From: a virus
Lineage: Duplodnaviria > Heunggongvirae > Uroviricota > Caudoviricetes
DNA length: 8,047 nt
IMG/VR virus record: IMGVR_UViG_2609459846_000016
Direction: 5' to 3' (one strand)
Below the pieces are notes generated by a model that saw only the letters and a program-made list of their open reading frames with translations, did no database searches and had not been told where the DNA came from. Positions 1 through 8,047 of the stretch are shown here, piece after piece. The translations under genes were made by a program, and so were the position numbers. The first letter of the stretch is position 1; each line of letters begins with the position of its first letter.

Positions 1-1
1 A

Positions 2-214
2 CTGACCAATCAGCTGGTGCAGACGGTAAGGGGGTATATCCGCGAATGCCTGCAATGGATGATTGATGACGGTGTGGTGTCCCGTATTGATCTGGATATC
101 CGCCGCACCGGGATTAATGAACTGGGTAACAGTATCACTCTCTGGCGACGTGACGGACCGGTAATGATTTCTTTTGATAATCTGTGGAGTGCGATAACGC
201 ATGGCGGACAGTGA
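2..214 (+). CDS. Phage baseplate protein, 3' end only (gene continues upstream of the window); probably the gp46/GPW-like wedge subunit that precedes gp47 in Mu-like tail modules
   Basis: Frame is open from the first base of the window to TGA at 212-214; the track shows only the last 65 aa (from an internal GTG at 17). It is co-oriented with the downstream baseplate J-like gene, whose ATG at 201 overlaps it by 14 nt. Identity is inferred from gene order only; I do not recognise motifs in the 70 visible residues. Confidence 0.45.
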   Translation: MTNQLVQTVRGYIRECLQWMIDDGVVSRIDLDIRRTGINELGNSITLWRRDGPVMISFDNLWSAITHGGQ

Positions 215-1283
215 ATTTCAGCGCCCGACGCTGGCAGAAAATATCAGTATGCTCCGTAACGATTTATTCGCCAGGCTGGACGTCAGTGACCCACTCCGGC
301 GCATGGATGAAGACGTGCGGGCAAAGGTGTATGCGGCGGCGCTGCATACGGTTTACGGTTACATCGATTATCTGGCAATGAACATACTGCCTGACCGGTG
401 TGATGAATCCTGGCTGGCGCGACATGCTGCGATGAAACGGTGTCCGCGCAAGGGGGCCACGGCTGCCAGCGGGTATATGCGCTGGGAAGATGTCAGCGAT
501 GACCTGAAGGTGACCGCCGGGAGTGTTATTCAGCGCGATGACCTGGTTCAGTACACAGCAACTGCCGATGCAACCAGCTCCAGTGGTGTCCTGCGCGTGC
601 CGATCGCCTGCTCAACTGCAGGTGCGGTCGGTAATGCTGACGACGGTACGGCATTAATCCTGGTCACGCCGGTGAATGGTCTGCCGTCGTCTGGTGTGGC
701 TGATACCCTGACCGGCGGATTCGATACTGAAGATCTGGAAACGTGGCGCGCCCGCGTCATTGAGCGGTATTACTGGACGCCTCAGGGCGGGGCTGACGGG
801 GATTATGTCGTCTGGGCTAAAGAAGTGCCTGGTATTACGCGCGCATGGACATACCGTCACTGGAGAGGAATAGGAACGGTAGGGGTGATGGTGGCGACAA
901 ACGATCCGGAACATCCGGCTCCGGATGAAAGCGTCATTAATGCAGTCAGAGAGCACATTCTTCCTCTGACACCGGTTGCCGGAAGCGGATTGTATGTATT
1001 CGGTGCCACAGAAAAAGTCATCCCGATGACGATTGCATTATCGAAAGACACACCGCAGATCAGGACTGCAATAAAAGCAGAGCTGAATGCACTGATGTTA
1101 CGGGATGGTGTGCCAGAGGGGCGTATGTATCTGTCCAGAATCAGTGAGGCCATCAGTTTGTCTGCTGGTGAAGTGGCCCACCGGTTAATCGTCCCTTCAT
1201 CGGATATTGACCTGGGGGAGACCGAGCTTCCGGTGCTCGGCGAGATCACCTGGCAGGCTTATGACCCGGCAAGGAGTAAATAA
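201..1283 (+). CDS. Baseplate J / gp47-family baseplate assembly protein
   Basis: 360-aa ORF. The N-terminal region (MADSEFQRPTLAEN...VYGYIDYLAMNILPD...) matches the pattern I recall for Mu gp47 / P2 gpJ-type proteins. Its TAA stop (1281-1283) overlaps the next ATG (1283) as TAATG. GC is roughly 50-55 percent, like the other baseplate genes. Confidence 0.8.
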   Translation: MADSEFQRPTLAENISMLRNDLFARLDVSDPLRRMDEDVRAKVYAAALHTVYGYIDYLAMNILPDRCDESWLARHAAMKRCPRKGATAASGYMRWEDVSDDLKVTAGSVIQRDDLVQYTATADATSSSGVLRVPIACSTAGAVGNADDGTALILVTPVNGLPSSGVADTLTGGFDTEDLETWRARVIERYYWTPQGGADGDYVVWAKEVPGITRAWTYRHWRGIGTVGVMVATNDPEHPAPDESVINAVREHILPLTPVAGSGLYVFGATEKVIPMTIALSKDTPQIRTAIKAELNALMLRDGVPEGRMYLSRISEAISLSAGEVAHRLIVPSSDIDLGETELPVLGEITWQAYDPARSK

Positions 1284-2242
1284 TGGATTCGTTACAGGAT
1301 GATTATAAAAAGCTGCTGTACGGACTGATGCCGCCGGGGCCTGCATGGAGCGATACCGACGGCGTGCTTGATGGTCTGGCACCATCGCTTGTACGTGTTC
1401 ATCAGCGGGCTGATGAACTGATGGCTGAAATCGATCCTGGTCAGTCAACAGAGCTGATTGAACGTTATGAAGAATTGTATGGTTTACCTGACACCTGCTC
1501 TCCTGTTGGAGCCCAGACATTACGCCAGCGTCAGCAACGGCTGGAAGCAAAAGCCAATGTGGCTGGTGGCATAAATGAGCAGTTCTTCCTGGAGCAGCTT
1601 GAGGCGCTGGGATATACCGGCGTGACGATCGAACAGTTCCAGCACCTGGATGCAAGCCCCGATCCGGAATGGGGTGATCGCTGGCGTTATTTCTGGCGTG
1701 TGACGTTGCCGGTGGATGCCGGTGCTCAGTGGCAGACATGTTCGGACACCTGTAACACACCGATCCGGACGTGGGGTGATACGGTTGCGGAATGCGTGAT
1801 TAATAAATTATGTCCGTCGCATACTGTTGTCCTTTTTGCATATCCGGATGAGTCTGGTGAAGTGCAACAAGCCGCCCTGACTATAAACAGCCTCTCCTTT
1901 CAGGCCGGACACAAGACGACTGAGCCATTAGCGATTAATCATACAGGTGTTCATTTTGCGGTTGTTCCGGCACTGACAGGTAAGCCGCTGACAATTAACC
2001 GGATTAACTTTTATGCCGCCCGTCCGATGGCAGAGCCACTGGTACTCAGCAGGGCGCAATTGCACTCAGGTCTGCCGACAACGGACCCCATGACCATGAA
2101 CAGCGCACAGTTGCAGACGGGATACAGGACCCGCTCCCCCGTACCAGTTAACAGTATGCAGTTGCAGACAGCCAGCAGACCCCGTGAACCGTTATTGATT
2201 AATCACCCGGGACTGCATTTTGCTGTGGTCACGTCCGAATGA
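1283..2242 (+). CDS. DUF2313/YmfQ-like phage tail protein (Mu gp48 / P2 gpI position) with a ~125-aa repeat-containing C-terminal extension
   Basis: 319-aa ORF with AAGGAG at 1271-1276, 6 nt before the ATG. N-terminal residues 1 to ~190 (LLYGLMPPGPAW ... ELIERYEELYGLPD ...) resemble YmfQ-type proteins, which I recall as ~190-200 aa. Residues ~195-319 carry internal repeats: EPLAINHTGVHFAVV and EPLLINHPGLHFAVV, and four copies of an xTxNSxQLQ-type unit. The matching DNA-level direct repeats are visible at about 1921-1975 and 2183-2240. Confidence 0.75.
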   Translation: MDSLQDDYKKLLYGLMPPGPAWSDTDGVLDGLAPSLVRVHQRADELMAEIDPGQSTELIERYEELYGLPDTCSPVGAQTLRQRQQRLEAKANVAGGINEQFFLEQLEALGYTGVTIEQFQHLDASPDPEWGDRWRYFWRVTLPVDAGAQWQTCSDTCNTPIRTWGDTVAECVINKLCPSHTVVLFAYPDESGEVQQAALTINSLSFQAGHKTTEPLAINHTGVHFAVVPALTGKPLTINRINFYAARPMAEPLVLSRAQLHSGLPTTDPMTMNSAQLQTGYRTRSPVPVNSMQLQTASRPREPLLINHPGLHFAVVTSE

Positions 2243-2265
2243 CATAAAATAAAAGGAGAGCCGCT

Positions 2266-3315
2266 TTGAATATTATTAAACTCGAAAGTTTTCGACAAAT
2301 TCCGGCGAATGAGGGATTGTGCGAGAACTATTATTCAACAAATATTATTTCAGCACTGAACGAAAACGGTGTCACGCTTATCAATGATATGTCCGGTTCT
2401 GTAACATCCGTCTGTCGTGGCACTCAGGCCGTAAATACTGTAGAAAGAACGGGGCTGATTTTTACGACACCCTCATATGTCACACTGTACAGCACACTTC
2501 CGGACTTAAAAGCCTCAGCTGTACAGCTGGGATTTCGTCTGACATTAAGTGCGGGAAAGAAATATTCATCTTCGCCATCCCACATCAGGATTAATGGCTA
2601 TTCATTTACAACCCCGTATCCTGATGAAGCAGCCAGTTATTACTATGAAATTTTCGCAACGCGAAACGAAAACGGCTATGTCTCAGCCAGTCTGTACTGC
2701 AACCGCTCATTAGTTGGAAATGCATCGTTTTATGTATCAGATGACCGGACTGACAAAATTCAGGTGAGTATTGGTAGTGGTGACAATATTTTTTCATCGG
2801 GTGCATCCGGCACGTTAATGCTGGGTGATATGTACTGTGGAACAGTGACATACGGTAGAAATAATAGTGCAGAACCCGCCCTGCTCGGAAGCATTGAGGT
2901 CAGATACAGCCCGGTAACGGCATTTACCGGTGGAAGCGCCAAAAACTCACTGAATAAAGATATTGTCACGGGGCTGAACACCTCTGACAGCGAGGCCGGA
3001 TATCTGATGCTCTCGCCCTCCCTGAATGCAGCACAGGCCACGTTTGGTGCGGTGGATAACAGCAACAGTGATGTTGTGGCTGTTATGGCCTCGGTCACTT
3101 ACCGCGGTGCTGATGCCCCCAATAACCGCCTGGCCTGGAAAGTGAAAAATGGCAGCCATGCAGGCGCAACGATTACAGAGAATGGCGTACAAAGCGACAC
3201 AAACAGCTGGACGACTGTCTCACAGAGTTTTATGGCCCAGCCAGGCGGAGAAACGCCTTTCACAAAGGGTGAACTGACTTTCACAGCGGAATTGTTTAAT
3301 CAGGCAAGGACATAA
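2266..3315 (+). CDS. Hypothetical protein, 349 aa, Ser/Thr/Asn/Gly/Tyr-rich; probable tail-associated or receptor-binding accessory protein, or a horizontally acquired cargo gene
   Basis: Long ORF starting at TTG 2266 with AGGAG at 2254-2258 (7-nt spacer). It sits 23 nt after the DUF2313 gene and 30 nt before the fibre gene, on the same strand. GC is visibly lower (about 40-45 percent) than the baseplate genes. No hydrophobic N-terminus or transmembrane stretch; composition suggests a beta-rich protein. I recognise no family. Confidence 0.6.
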   Translation: MNIIKLESFRQIPANEGLCENYYSTNIISALNENGVTLINDMSGSVTSVCRGTQAVNTVERTGLIFTTPSYVTLYSTLPDLKASAVQLGFRLTLSAGKKYSSSPSHIRINGYSFTTPYPDEAASYYYEIFATRNENGYVSASLYCNRSLVGNASFYVSDDRTDKIQVSIGSGDNIFSSGASGTLMLGDMYCGTVTYGRNNSAEPALLGSIEVRYSPVTAFTGGSAKNSLNKDIVTGLNTSDSEAGYLMLSPSLNAAQATFGAVDNSNSDVVAVMASVTYRGADAPNNRLAWKVKNGSHAGATITENGVQSDTNSWTTVSQSFMAQPGGETPFTKGELTFTAELFNQART

Positions 3316-3345
3316 TTCTGATATTTCATTCACGGGAGGTTTAAT

Positions 3346-4455
3346 ATGCACAGAATTGACACTCCGACAGCAGTTAAAGATAAATTTGGCCCGGGCAAGA
3401 ACGGATTTACTGACGGGAATATTCGTACAGGGCGTCATGCCACCTGGCTGAACAGTGCCATGTGGGATGCCCTTCAGGAGGAAATCTGTGGTGTCATTGA
3501 GAAGGCCGGGATAGAACTGAATAAAGAGGAACACGACCAGTTATATAAAGCCATATTATTACTGGTGGGCGGTGCAATTAACGAAGAGGCATTGCTGATA
3601 AAAAATAATCTTTCGGATGTCGAAGACAGTGATGAGGCTGTTGAAAACCTCGGATTAAAACCCACGGTGGATAAGGCAAAAAATGCCGTTCAGCGTGATG
3701 GAGACACCATGACCGGGGAGCTGAAAATCAGTGGTGTTAATGCACTGAGGATTTTCAACGAAGCCTTTGGTCTGATTTTTCGTCGTTCGGAAGAGTGTCT
3801 GCACCTCATTCCTACCCGGGAAAATCAGGGCGAGAGTGGTGATATTGGGCCGCTACGCCCCTTTACGCTTAATCTCAGGACCGGTCGCATAACTATGGGA
3901 CACGGTCTGGATGTTACAGAAGATGTATTTGCAGGCCGTTTAGCGATTAACAGCAGTAACGGAACGTGGATTCAGATGCGTGACAACAACGTTATTTTCG
4001 GGAAAAACAGGATAAATACTGATGCTGCTCAGGCGCTTCTGCGTCAGGATCATGCAGACAGAAAGTATTTCCTGGCTGGTCTTGGGAATAAGCAGTTTGG
4101 CATTTACATGATAAATAATAGCCGTACGGATAATGGTACGGACGGTCAGGCGTATATGGATGATGCGGGAAACTGGCGATGCGGGCGTCAGGTTATACCG
4201 TCAGACTACGGAAACTTCGATGCCCGCTACCAGACCAAAACAGGTGGCGTACAGAATTTTCAGTATACCAGTGAGGTGTTTTACAACCCGGGCGGGAACG
4301 AGCACAGCTGGACGTTTCGAGCACCTTCTGGTTGTGTTTTGTCAGGCATTAATGTTCAGGATACTGGCCGTAACTCTGCAGACAATATCGGTGGCGTGTA
4401 TTACAAACAGGCTCAGATTTATATTAATGGTGCATGGCGATCTGTATCAGGTTAA
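3346..4455 (+). CDS. Phage tail fibre protein (Mu S / P2 gpH-like)
   Basis: 369-aa ORF with GGGAGG at 3334-3339 before the ATG. Motifs shared with tail fibres as I recall them: ALLIKNNLSD, ENLGLKPTV...NAVQRDGDTMTGELKI (compare P2 H LGLQETVNRAGNAVQKNGDTLSGGL) and a C-terminal ...IYINGAWRSV. The ENLGL motif at 3641-3667 is the usual constant/variable junction. Confidence 0.85.
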   Translation: MHRIDTPTAVKDKFGPGKNGFTDGNIRTGRHATWLNSAMWDALQEEICGVIEKAGIELNKEEHDQLYKAILLLVGGAINEEALLIKNNLSDVEDSDEAVENLGLKPTVDKAKNAVQRDGDTMTGELKISGVNALRIFNEAFGLIFRRSEECLHLIPTRENQGESGDIGPLRPFTLNLRTGRITMGHGLDVTEDVFAGRLAINSSNGTWIQMRDNNVIFGKNRINTDAAQALLRQDHADRKYFLAGLGNKQFGIYMINNSRTDNGTDGQAYMDDAGNWRCGRQVIPSDYGNFDARYQTKTGGVQNFQYTSEVFYNPGGNEHSWTFRAPSGCVLSGINVQDTGRNSADNIGGVYYKQAQIYINGAWRSVSG

Positions 4456-4469
4456 TTAAGGAGAAAATA

Positions 4470-5000
4470 ATGGAACTCTCAAACATTACGCGTTACTACC
4501 CTGAAGACATGCCTTATGGTGACGGCATTCAGTATTTCCGTAGTGAAGACGGGCAGGATTTTTATGAATCACTGGATAAATTCACGAAGAAATACAAGCT
4601 GTGCACGCATCCTGAAACCGGCGTTATTTATTCCGTGGCGGAAGATGTATCCCGTCTTTATCCCGTTGGTTTTACCATTGTGGAAGTGGATGAACTACCG
4701 GATGGTTTTTGTATAGAGGCGCGCTGGTATTATAAAGACGGTGAAGTACTACCGGTCCCTGTTGATTACAGGCAGCAGGCAGAGTCGGAGCGTGCACGTC
4801 TTACTGCGATTGCTGAACGGGAAATATCCGATAAGAAGACGGATTTACTTTTGGGAATCATCGGTGATGAAGAAAAAGAAAAGCTGACAGTCTGGCGCAT
4901 TTACGCGAAATTGCTGCAGGCGATGGATTTCAGCACCATCACTGATAAAACCTCATATAACGCCATTGAATGGCCCGTCTCTCCGGAAGCCTCTTCCTGA
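4470..5000 (+). CDS. Tail fibre assembly protein (Tfa / Mu U / P2 gpG-like chaperone)
   Basis: 176 aa. ATG at 4470 is preceded by AGGAG at 4459-4463 and lies 14 nt after the fibre stop. The C-terminus (...KLTVWRIYAKLLQAMDFSTITDKTSYNAIEWPVSP) matches the conserved Tfa C-terminus, for example lambda Tfa ...APDIEWPAVP as I recall. The track start at 4434 overlaps the fibre gene and has no RBS, so 4470 is preferred. Confidence 0.85.
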   Translation: MELSNITRYYPEDMPYGDGIQYFRSEDGQDFYESLDKFTKKYKLCTHPETGVIYSVAEDVSRLYPVGFTIVEVDELPDGFCIEARWYYKDGEVLPVPVDYRQQAESERARLTAIAEREISDKKTDLLLGIIGDEEKEKLTVWRIYAKLLQAMDFSTITDKTSYNAIEWPVSPEASS

Positions 5001-5089
5001 TTTAATTTATCGCGAGAAAAATTATGTCTGTAGTGATATCAGGTGCGCTGACAGATGGCGCAGGCGCAGGTCGATCGCAATGACGAGAT

Positions 5090-5360
5090 TTATCGCCGTA
5101 GGAGGGAGATGAAGGAAGAACTGAGCAGTCTGGGGGATTTGAAGTCGATTAGGAATTTTATAGTGGAATAACAGAAGCCGCGGCACGTCGTATGCAAGAA
5201 CGCACCGCGGCAGGCACCAATATTTTTTGTGAAGGTATCTTTTCCCGGAATATCTGCGCCGTTCTGGTTTTTCTGTAATGCGCCAGAAGCCTGATTTACC
5301 GTTTCCTGTAAACCGAGGTTTTTGAGAATTGCCTCCGTGTCGTCTGAACGATATTTTTTC
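5090..5360 (-). pseudogene. Truncated remnant of an alternative tail-fibre segment (S'-like) in inverted orientation
   Basis: Minus-strand translation of about 5212-5360 gives KKYRSDDTEAILKNLGLQETVNQASGALQKNQNGADIPGKDTFTKNIGA, paralogous to the + strand fibre residues SDEAVENLGLKPTVDKAKNAVQRDGDTMTG. The frame then runs into non-fibre-like sequence and stops at 5090. There is no room for the rest of a fibre or a second assembly gene. The track ORF 5090..5467 starts inside the IS terminal repeats, so its first ~40 codons are not fibre-derived. Confidence 0.4.
5303..5328. other. Gin/Hin/Pin/Cin-family DNA-invertase crossover site (gix/hix-like)
   Basis: TTCCTGTAAACCGAGGTTTTTGAGAA is an imperfect palindrome about a central GA. 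It differs at 2 of 26 positions from the Mu gix sequence as I remember it (TTCCTGTAAACCGAGGTTTTGGATAA). On the minus strand it encodes N-L-G-L-Q-E, the fibre junction motif. Confidence 0.6.
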
Positions 5361-5409
5361 CCGCTTTCAGCAACAATCGCGGGCCAGAAAGTATGCAATA
5401 TAGTTATGT

Positions 5410-5542
5410 GCAAAATGGCATCTGAATCGATCGCAGTTTGGCATTCGAATCGATCATGATTTGGCATTCATCTCCGATCACAGTTTGGCATCACAATCGA
5501 TCACGATTTGGCATGCTTCCGATCATTGATTGGCATCCTGCC
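5410..5542. repeat. Left terminal multi-repeat array of the IS (5 tandem ~23-bp units plus a partial sixth)
   Basis: CGATC anchors at 5428, 5451, 5476, 5498 and 5520 (spacing 22-25 bp), each followed by (A/G)TTTGGCAT; a partial unit AAAATGGCATC lies at 5412-5422. Confidence 0.7.
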
Positions 5543-5610
5543 AGTCACTCCGGGAATTAACTCTTTTCACCACAGTCTCCATTGCCGTGTTTAAACCAGT
5601 GGAGACGTCA

Positions 5611-7176
5611 ATGTCCAGAAAGAGAAAATCCAGGAGCACTATGGAAACCTGTTTTAAGATCCTTCAGCTCAAGTTCGACAAGAAGCTGACTAACCGTTGT
5701 ATCGGACTGACGTTACACATCAGCGCCTCAACCGTTTTTGAGGTTCTTGCCCGCTTCAAAGCCTCTTCTCTGTCATGGCCATTACCTGCTGATATATCCC
5801 ATGACACGCTGGAGAAACTCATTTTTCCGCCCAAAGACACCTTTGCATCAGAGCTTGTAATGCCTGACATGTTGTACTTCGATACGGAAATGAGAAAACC
5901 AGGTGTGACGCGGCAACTGTTGTGGATGGAATACAAGGCACAGGCGGGTGACAAAGCGATGGGATACTCGCACTTCTGCCGTTGCTACCGGGAGTGGAAA
6001 AAAACGCGACGTCTCTCCATGCGCCAGGAGCATCGTGCCGGCGAAAAGCTTTTTATCGACTTCTGTGGTCCTACGGTTCCTGTTATTAATCCGGACACCG
6101 GTGAGATACGCCGCGTGGCAATCTTCGTGGCCGTAATGGGGGCGTCCAACTATACCTACGTTGAAGCGTGCGAAGGTCAGGACATGATGTCATGGTTAAA
6201 TGCCCACAGCCGTTGCCTGACCTTCCTGGGCGGCGTACCGAAGCTGCTCATCCCCGATAACCTCAGAAGCGCAGTGAAAAAGGCCGATCGCTATGAGCCT
6301 GTCATCAACGACAGTTATCAGGCACTGGCTGAGCACTATGGCACGGTTATCATCCCGGCCCGACCACGCAAACCTAAAGATAAACCAAAAGCAGAAAACG
6401 GCGTCCTCATCGTCGAACGATGGCTTCTTGCCCGCATCCGTAATGAAACCTTCCACACGCTCAGGGCGCTGAATGCGCGCCTTAGGGAGTTACTGACAGA
6501 CATGAATAACCGGCCAATGAAGGGGTACGGCAATCAAACCCGTGCAGAACGCTTCCGCATACTGGATGCGCCAGCACTCTCTCCGCTGCCTCTGGCACCT
6601 TATGAATACACGGAATACAAAGCTGTGAAGGTTGGCCCTGACTACCACGTTGAATATGCCCGTCACTGGTACTCCGTTCCACACGAACTGGTCGGTCAGC
6701 GTCTGTCACTGAAGGCGGGGCAGTCGGTGGTACAGCTCTGGCACAAGGGGCAGTGTGTGGCGCAACATCCGCGCAGCACACATGAATATAAACACACAAC
6801 CAATCCGCTTCACATGCCAGAGCGCCACCGGCAGCACGGGACATGGACACCGGAACGCCTGATCGAGCAGGGAAAACGTACGGGCCCGTCCACAGGCCGG
6901 GTGGTTGAATCCATGCTGAAGGCAAAACCCCATCCGGAACTGGCTTATCGTGCAGTTCTGGGGCTGCTGGCACTTCAGAAAAAATACGGCCCGGAACGGC
7001 TGGAAAAGGCCTGTTACGTTGCCCTGCACTATAACGCCCCTGACAGACGCTTTATCGACAATCTGCTGCGTCACCATCGGGAGAACCTGGAGCTTCCATT
7101 ATCCCGCCAGGGCGAACAACATCCGGCATATGCTTCAGAGCATGAAAACCTGCGTGGTCCGGGCTACTACCACTGA
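5611..7176 (+). CDS. istA: IS21-family transposase IstA (N-terminal HTH plus DDE integrase core)
   Basis: 521 aa from ATG 5611 (GGAGA at 5601-5605). Motifs typical of IstA: FIDFCGP, FVAVMGASNYTYVE, FLGGVPKLLIPDN, KPKAENGV. The track start at 5530 is a TTG inside the terminal repeats and is rejected. An alternative ATG at 5641 also has an AGGAG 4 nt upstream. Confidence 0.9.
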   Translation: MSRKRKSRSTMETCFKILQLKFDKKLTNRCIGLTLHISASTVFEVLARFKASSLSWPLPADISHDTLEKLIFPPKDTFASELVMPDMLYFDTEMRKPGVTRQLLWMEYKAQAGDKAMGYSHFCRCYREWKKTRRLSMRQEHRAGEKLFIDFCGPTVPVINPDTGEIRRVAIFVAVMGASNYTYVEACEGQDMMSWLNAHSRCLTFLGGVPKLLIPDNLRSAVKKADRYEPVINDSYQALAEHYGTVIIPARPRKPKDKPKAENGVLIVERWLLARIRNETFHTLRALNARLRELLTDMNNRPMKGYGNQTRAERFRILDAPALSPLPLAPYEYTEYKAVKVGPDYHVEYARHWYSVPHELVGQRLSLKAGQSVVQLWHKGQCVAQHPRSTHEYKHTTNPLHMPERHRQHGTWTPERLIEQGKRTGPSTGRVVESMLKAKPHPELAYRAVLGLLALQKKYGPERLEKACYVALHYNAPDRRFIDNLLRHHRENLELPLSRQGEQHPAYASEHENLRGPGYYH

Positions 7177-7192
7177 CAGAAGGAACAACAGT

Positions 7193-7948
7193 ATGAGTGA
7201 TAACCTGTTAAACAAACTGACCCAACTGAAACTCCCGGCGATGGCCGGGAGCCTGATACGGCAGCGGGAAACGCCTCAGACCTACGACGAACTGTCGTTC
7301 GAGGAAAGGCTGACGCTGCTGGTTGATGACGAGCTTCTGAGCAGGGAAAACAGCCGTGTGGCACGGTTGAGAAAAAATGCCGGCCTGAAATACCAGGCAA
7401 CACCGGAAGGGCTGCGCTATCCGGCCTCAAGAGGTCTGCGGGCTGAACAGATGAGAGAACTGCTGAACGGCCACTACATAACCCACAGGAAAAACCTGCT
7501 GATAACCGGTCCGACAGGATGTGGCAAGAGCTGGATAGCCAATGCACTGGGCGAACAGGCATGTCGACAGAAACACAGCGTCCGGTACTGTAGAACCGGG
7601 CGATTACTGGAACAACTGGCTCAGGGACGTGTTGATGGCAGCTGGCTGAAATATCTGAAACAGTTGCAAAAAATACAGGTTCTAATCCTGGACGATCTGG
7701 GGCTGGAACAGTTAAGTAACGCCCAGTGTAATGACCTTCTGGAGCTCATAGAGGATCGTTACGGACAAAGCAGCACGATAGTGGTAAGTCAGTTCCCGGT
7801 AGATAAATGGCATGGTCTGATGGAGAACCCAACAACAGCAGATGCCATCCTGGACAGACTGGTACATAACTCACACCGGGTGGTCCTTCAGGGAGAGTCA
7901 CTGAGGAAAAATCCCCCGGTAGTGGAAAGCAGCGAAAAAACGCGTTAA
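7193..7948 (+). CDS. istB: IS21-family helper ATPase IstB (DnaC-like AAA+)
   Basis: 251 aa from ATG 7193, 16 nt after the istA stop. Walker A GPTGCGKS and Walker B VLILDDLG are present. The track ORF begins at 6950, overlapping istA; 7193 is preferred. Confidence 0.9.
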   Translation: MSDNLLNKLTQLKLPAMAGSLIRQRETPQTYDELSFEERLTLLVDDELLSRENSRVARLRKNAGLKYQATPEGLRYPASRGLRAEQMRELLNGHYITHRKNLLITGPTGCGKSWIANALGEQACRQKHSVRYCRTGRLLEQLAQGRVDGSWLKYLKQLQKIQVLILDDLGLEQLSNAQCNDLLELIEDRYGQSSTIVVSQFPVDKWHGLMENPTTADAILDRLVHNSHRVVLQGESLRKNPPVVESSEKTR

Positions 7949-7974
7949 AAAGCGGTAGAAAAAGTTAAGTTCCC

Positions 7975-8047
7975 GGTTGATCGAATGGATGCGAATCGCT
8001 GATCGGACTTCGATGCCAATCCGTGATCGAATAGAGCGGAATACGCA
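7975..8047. repeat. Right-end terminal repeats of the IS (inverted copies of the left-end unit), truncated by the window edge
   Basis: The reverse complement of 8004-8027 is CGATCACGGATTGGCATCGAAGTC, and of about 7983-8003 is CGATCAGCGATTCGCATCCAT. Both match the left-end unit in inverted orientation. Only two units are visible before the window ends. Confidence 0.6.

Follow-up and report, generated by a model that had tools for sequence, protein, structure and literature searches.

The Gin/G segment of phage Mu and the Pin/P segment of e14 in E. coli K-12 are inversion switches of the same kind as the locus described here, with the same gene order, aligned invertase start codons and, upstream, gp47- and gp48(YmfQ)-like genes that are also present in our sequence. 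Their invertases belong to the MLIGYVRVS subfamily, in contrast to the MQYGYARVS subfamily met at this locus, and their leaders are not alignable with ours in sequence. Both of these invertase genes are annotated as intact, while the switch studied here is dead.

The likeness extends further in hin of Yersinia phage vB_YpM_39 (OR545053) and pin of Salmonella phage SJ46 (NC_031129), which share with our sequence the 64-bp leader and an MQY.Y start, as well as the overall layout of invertase, crossover site, Sv'-U' cassette and inverted U-S. In these two phages, however, the invertases are intact (184-193 aa, Resolvase and HTH_7 domains), the site has a well-matched partner and the alternative cassettes are full, whereas at our locus only 16 nt of the gene are left before an insertion sequence (IS). 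The same invertase gene also occurs on ~48-52 kb plasmid records of E. coli: an intact MQYGYARVS-type invertase with the same leader is found on such 48-52 kb records in 34 complete genomes, for example on the 48.5-kb NZ_CP009073.1 of ATCC 25922. Strains 100117 and 100248 hold both the plasmid-borne intact invertase and a chromosomal relic; the invertase could therefore be present in trans.

The window, that is, the whole stretch of 8,047 nucleotides analysed here, matches a prophage of E. coli B7A (ETEC) over positions 1-5408, colinearly and without indels, with 5393 of the 5408 positions identical (99.7%). The B7A prophage adjoins potB. Very probably the window represents the terminal part of a cryptic prophage whose tail genes are Mu-like and which is potB-adjacent in close E. 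coli relatives. Its features up to the IS are the following:

201-1283, plus strand: baseplate J/gp47 gene (ORF list and Pfam scan)
1283-2242, plus strand: Mu gp48/YmfQ-like gene (ORF list and Pfam scan)
2266-3315, plus strand: ORF of 349 aa with a TTG start, between gp48 and the tail-fibre gene
3346-4455, plus strand: tail-fibre gene in the expressed orientation, residues 1-65 with 61.5% identity to e14 StfP
3638-3663, no strand: degenerate candidate left partner site within the expressed tail-fibre gene (codons ...VENLGLKP...), 16/26 against the right site, in inverted orientation
4470-5000, plus strand: tail-fibre assembly gene, tfa (Pfam Caudo_TAP at 1e-21)
5001-5205, no strand: scrambled filler from the tfa stop codon to the Sv' remnant, including a DUF4376-type fragment; pseudogene fragments in the PGAP annotation of B7A and E200086
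5206-5302, minus strand: what is left of the alternative tail-fibre variable cassette (Sv'), 97 bp on the inner side of the site, 95/97 against vB_YpM_39
5303-5328, no strand: 26-bp gix/pix-type crossover site, invertase-proximal ("right"), TTCCTGTAAACCGAGGTTTTTGAGAA, effectively an orphan in the window
5329-5392, plus strand: 64-bp leader or upstream region of the invertase gene, 59/64 identical to the spacer in both vB_YpM_39 and SJ46
5393-5408, plus strand: first 16 nt of the relic serine DNA-invertase gene (M-Q-Y-S-Y and base 1 of codon 6), cut by the IS; 15/16 against the hin/pin 5' ends

On the 3' side of tfa follow ~330 bp of fragments, the 26-bp crossover site and an IS21-family element that fills the window to its last base.

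Among the upstream genes, the 349-aa ORF has no Pfam match and is called "hypothetical" in the annotation of all relatives. The gp48/YmfQ-like ORF carries a ~130-aa C-terminal extension of ~17-20-aa repeats (xPLxINxxxxxF..., with the repeat pair 1921-1965 / 2185-2229). Pfam Gp48 spans only residues 13-187 of this ORF, and PGAP labels the B7A copy "incomplete, missing C-terminus". On the other side, the interval from the relic to potB in B7A holds a tfa fragment, a SAM-methyltransferase gene and another tfa fragment. Both fragments are C-terminal and flank a reverse-strand class I SAM-dependent methyltransferase gene (L001 8194-9359), giving a patchwork-like prophage end. The fibre and tfa genes as such are found in prophages of three chromosomal contexts: near smpB (L012), near pncA-aspS (L013, L016, L017) and near potB (L009-L011, L014, L015, L018). 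The copies outside the potB context diverge from the window at 5064 or 5115 and have neither the crossover site nor the invertase relic.

The crossover site and the remains of the invertible segment

The site at 5303-5328 agrees with the boundary site of the phage Mu G segment at 24/26 positions and with the site beside hin of vB_YpM_39 at 25/26, the two sites of the latter phage differing from it at 1 and 3 positions. Every other 26-mer of the window differs from it at more than 9 positions. The basis for the left candidate at 3638-3663 is an inverted repeat (I1) that is 74% complementary over 34 nt. The two matching inverted 26-bp sites of a Gin-type invertible segment are consequently not found here, the left candidate reaching 16/26. 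The same holds for its two cassettes: the plus-strand cassette (3346-5000) is intact, while the opposite one is represented by 97 bp and unrelated fragments.

The 97-bp piece can be assigned with some precision. Its minus-strand translation matches Sv'/S' of Mu, D108 and P1, and PGAP annotates its equivalent in B7A as "phage tail protein, missing N- and C-terminus". Homology to the invertible segment of vB_YpM_39 starts only at ~5206; the rest of the Sv'-U' cassette is missing and U' is gone. Because the site, the cassette and the enzyme are all degraded, the fibre locus is fixed.

We also considered the site as a mere internal motif of an inverted fibre-gene fragment, the antisense frame being open beyond it. 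As the main reading this was rejected, the same stretch lying directly before intact invertase genes.

The invertase leader and start codon

The phage genomes were searched (tblastn) with the minus-strand translation across 5207-5413. Most matches (Mu, D108, P1, P7) do not extend beyond the site and cover only the conserved beginning of the Sv' cassette on its inner side. Five records, namely vB_YpM_39, _41, _44 and two SJ46 records, match also through the outer 80 bp and into an annotated DNA invertase gene. In hin of vB_YpM_39 and pin of SJ46, which run on the other strand, the annotated start lies 18 nt within the match and corresponds to window position 5393. At the nucleotide level, 5329-5408 is identical at 74/80 positions (92.5%) to the leader and first codons of each of the two genes. 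A leader and 5' end homologous to those of a serine DNA invertase (PF00239 and PF02796) are therefore found just outside the crossover site, where the earlier note had expected the invertase gene and had located an IS21-family element in its place; its positional reasoning, that this gene lies just outside the site, was sound.

Hin of vB_YpM_39 and Pin of SJ46 both start MQYGYARVSTFDQN (fuller N-terminus, MQYGYARVSTFDQNLELQ), and the former matches Pfam Resolvase at 2.6e-44 and HTH_7 at 2.9e-13. A six-way MAFFT alignment of the window with B7A, vB_YpM_39, SJ46, Mu and e14 brings the crossover sites into register and superimposes ATG 5393 on the start codons of hin, pin, gin and pinE. From site to start the distance is 64 bp in the window, B7A, vB_YpM_39 and SJ46, against 55 bp in Mu and e14. 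ATG 5393 is the homologue, in both position and sequence, of these four start codons, and the IS lies within the invertase gene, behind its first 16 coding nt.

Read from ATG 5393, the stub gives M-Q-Y-S-Y. The junction falls within codon 6 (GTG), with G at position 5408 and TG supplied by the first two bases of the IS, which coincide with the original bases. The reading M-Q-Y-S-Y-V, running into the IS repeats, had been noticed before and is borne out. Its resemblance to invertases had then been rated as weak (3 of 6 positions), which is true against MLIGYV; against the MQYGYA subfamily the stub agrees at 4/6 residues and 15/16 bases. The N-terminus used for the earlier comparison, MLIGYV, is that of the Pin/Gin subfamily, and this alone made the resemblance seem weak. 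The serine in the motif Y-x-R-V-S is the catalytic nucleophile of serine invertases; this motif is absent from the window, which has only M-Q-Y-S-Y before the IS.

A simple scan of the leader (5329-5392) found no consensus sigma-70 promoter on the plus strand. A TTG-initiated plus-strand ORF at 5322-5459 (MRIASVSSER...) was tried as a recombinase start and set aside: it is in another frame than the conserved hin/pin start and is without a homologue. On the minus strand, the frame across 5329-5410 is open, ...SDDTEAILKNLGL, and resembles the end of the fibre constant part (compare SDEAVENLGL at 3620-3655). The Sv' CDS of SJ46 is annotated to start 6 nt inside pin.

The ISSso4 element and its insertion point

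The remainder of the window is taken up by a single element. Its target hexamer and its features are these:

5403-5408, no strand: target hexamer GTTATG, spanning codons 4-6; its duplication at the right end of the IS, outside the window, is predicted
5409-8047, plus strand: complete ISSso4-like IS21-family insertion sequence of 2,639 bp (TGCAAAATGG...GAATACGCA), ends set by the target duplications of other copies
5409-5560, plus strand: left terminal region of the IS, which carries some six spaced TTTGGCAT...GATC repeats (~5416-5545; direct-repeat family D1)
5641-7176, plus strand: istA, transposase of 511 aa (Pfam Mu-transpos_C_2 at 3e-20; "IS21 family transposase" on near-identical copies)
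7193-7948, plus strand: istB, helper ATPase of 251 aa (Pfam IstB_IS21 at 1e-60)
7960-8047, plus strand: right terminal region of the IS, with repeated GATCG... motifs (direct repeat D9, inverted matches I4/I5)

The boundaries were taken from three other copies, inserted into a decayed ISL3 transposase gene, an antirestriction gene and dtpD. Each starts TGCAAAATGG and ends GAATACGCA, and their target duplications are exact and of 6 bp (TATATG, GTTACG and TTATAC). Because these clean duplications define the ends, the IS starts at 5409 and ends at 8047. Its left end lies exactly 80 bp beyond the crossover site, in accordance with the earlier estimate of about 80 bp. The right end, which had been placed beyond the window, lies inside it, on the last base.

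The element is identical at all 2639 of 2639 positions to the copy of E. coli JNE21-003, and at 2637/2639 and 2632/2639 to two others. It has the tandem istA and istB genes of the IS21 family, and 5'-TG...CA-3' terminal inverted repeats with subterminal repeats, the ends reading TGCAAAATGGCATC... and ...GCGGAATACGCA; the inverted matches I4 and I5 pair the left region with the right end (8012-8030). The integrase core (rve) of IstA scores 1.5e-07 (32.1 bits), just below the curated cut-off of 32.6, and istB has 100% DNA identity to copies that PGAP names "IS21-like element ISSso4 family helper ATPase". All the IS21/ISSso4 tests that could be run were passed by this IS. In itself it does not differ from other E. 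coli copies, and only its insertion site is new, with no counterpart among 5,426 complete E. coli genomes.

Many strains carry several copies of ISSso4, at up to 33-34 places per genome, and the literature searched for it holds incidental mentions only. The four target hexamers at hand (GTTATG, TATATG, GTTACG, TTATAC) are all T/A-rich and "TTAY"-like, which hints at a target preference, the four sites being far too few to conclude on it.

The last base of the IS is also the last base of the window (8047), which resembles a contig break at a repeat boundary; short-read assembly yields contigs that end at such boundaries. The junctions were sought in several collections. None of the 16 complete E. 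coli genomes covering at least 80% of 4460-5410 has the left ISSso4 junction. Among the 5,426 complete genomes, neither the left junction nor a synthetic right junction had a covering megablast match, and exact searches of genome_contigs and metagenome_contigs with the left and the predicted right junctions gave no match. Neither of the two ORFs across the left junction (minus strand, 125 aa; plus strand, 45 aa) had an exact protein match on record, and for the tfa protein the matching contigs were all either IS-free or from other chromosomal contexts.

The right junction would be predicted to read ...GAATACGCA-GTTATG-TGATGATGTCAACTTTTGACC..., followed by the B7A-type relic. We infer that the window's own right flank is this same relic with the GTTATG duplication, and from it the order of events, because of the 99.7% colinear identity to B7A and the Ser4 and Val6 substitutions shared with the relic alleles.

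A second insertion is found close by. E. coli E200086, 100117 and 100248 carry an IS66-family element (tnpA-tnpB-tnpC) at 5389/5390, so that 19 bp separate it from the ISSso4 site on its right. The 8 bp duplicated at its target, GGCCAGAA, correspond to window 5382-5389, 3 bp before the relic ATG (L002 6925-6936, 9620-9640). Two unrelated IS families within the same ~20-bp stretch are a mild curiosity without statistical weight. It seems unlikely, with two events and no statistics, that the start region of the relic invertase is a preferred landing pad for unrelated ISs; if it were, a local DNA feature of the invertase leader or of the recombinational-enhancer region could be the cause.

IS-free alleles and the order of events

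The insertion point could be read across in seven IS-free contigs (B7A and six further ones). All seven match the window exactly up to and including 5410 and go on as ...GTTATG-TGATGATGTCAACTTTTGACCAGAATATGGAG...; the empty site of B7A reads ...ATATAGTTATGTGATGATG..., and its relic sequence, …GTTATGTGATGATGTCAAC…, meets a stop at codon 25. E200086 shows the same relic continuation to the right of its IS66 insertion.

The earlier note had proposed joining the flanks to see whether a serine-recombinase ORF is reconstituted. The IS-free alleles that were read through the insertion point all give a 24-codon ORF, MQYSYVMMSTFDQNMELQAEVLRW-stop, with the continuation past the stub reading ...VMMSTFDQNMELQAEVLRW*. 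A full ORF of ~185-195 aa with Resolvase and C-terminal HTH_7 domains is not found in any of these alleles. What they hold is ~160 bp of invertase-like sequence, about 53 scrambled codons, so that the comparison with IS-free relatives shows invertase-derived sequence at this position and no unrelated gene.

The catalytic motif of this relic reads Y-V-M-M-S, the serine being kept and Arg-Val replaced by Met-Met, and STFDQN.ELQ, which is conserved around the catalytic serine of invertases, is present. At the DNA level, homology to hin fades out after ~95 bp of the gene. In tblastn with Hin, SJ46 Pin and PinE, residues 1-34 match the IS-free allele at E=8e-8. A match to residues 97-115, weak on its own (E=0.2-0.5), directly abuts the first one in frame, which implies a 62-codon internal deletion. 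The same searches found no further part of the catalytic domain and no HTH in the IS-free allele, and the relic read through its stop has no Pfam match at E<=1. The window shares the derived Ser4 and Val6 codons with the relic. By its reading frame and domain content, the empty-site allele is a long-dead pseudogene.

Taken together, we consider it highly likely that an intact ISSso4 landed in the already-dead invertase pseudogene of a fossil switch. Mechanistically, a Gin/Pin-type tail-fibre inversion switch of the MQYGYARVS subfamily, standard in its function, would have decayed in the cryptic prophage, leaving one good site (5303-5328), 97 bp of the alternative cassette, the 64-bp leader and, in the IS-free copies, ~160 bp of broken invertase. 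Later, an active and intact ISSso4 copy would have inserted by ordinary IS21-type transposition into GTTATG (5403-5408), at codons 4-6 of the relic. The pseudogene would have been long dead by then, because the joined sequence of the IS-free alleles gives no serine-recombinase ORF, and the IS probably did not kill a working gene. The earlier proposal that the IS splits the invertase gene is right in that the IS lies within the gene, after its first 16 nt; the gene so divided was probably not functional, the IS-free copies being a relic already. No functional effect on tail-fibre switching is expected, since the switch had already lost its invertase, its alternative cassette and its partner site.

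An IS-associated deletion or inversion on the right side is possible. In that case the insertion would have come with a rearrangement, either an adjacent deletion or an inversion between two ISSso4 copies, and the DNA to the right would be unrelated to the prophage. The many copies of ISSso4 per genome would allow for such an event; the window stops on the last IS base, and neither junction turned up in any collection searched. A contig that ends at a repeat boundary is, however, expected from short-read assembly, no positive evidence points to a rearrangement, and simple insertion with a clean 6-bp duplication is what the other examined copies show, so that we regard this course of events as very unlikely.

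Still less probable is an IS that inactivated a functional invertase, with a full-length serine recombinase resuming past the right IS end. The good preservation of the leader and the first 16 nt (74/80 against intact genes) fits such a history, as does the failure of the junction searches to find the window's right flank. Yet the window is 99.7% identical to, and colinear with, B7A-type alleles that carry the ~160-bp relic, and has the derived Ser4 and Val6 codons in common with them. The identical relic is present in 7/7 IS-free contigs and again beyond the IS66 of E200086. Moreover, both have the alternative cassette deleted and the left site degenerate, so an invertase would have nothing left to invert.

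That ATG 5393 and its "MQYSYV" are a chance reading, the 80 bp being a non-coding stretch of the prophage or a tail-fibre fragment read in antisense, is hardly credible and may be counted as already refuted: the open minus-strand frame with its fibre-like end, the SJ46 Sv' CDS annotated as starting within the region and the lack of statistical weight of six residues alone stand against 92.5% identity to the sequence that precedes and starts two full-length, domain-verified invertase genes, and against an IS-free allele that continues with STFDQN.ELQ.

The insertion of ISSso4 into the invertase relic is thus biologically minor, another step in the ordinary decay of a cryptic prophage, and its only novelty is a new insertion site for a well-known and currently active IS. 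For annotation, the stub at 5393-5408 and the orphan site at 5303-5328 are best labelled as remnants of a Gin/Pin-type switch, and the tail-fibre locus of this prophage should not be treated as phase-variable.
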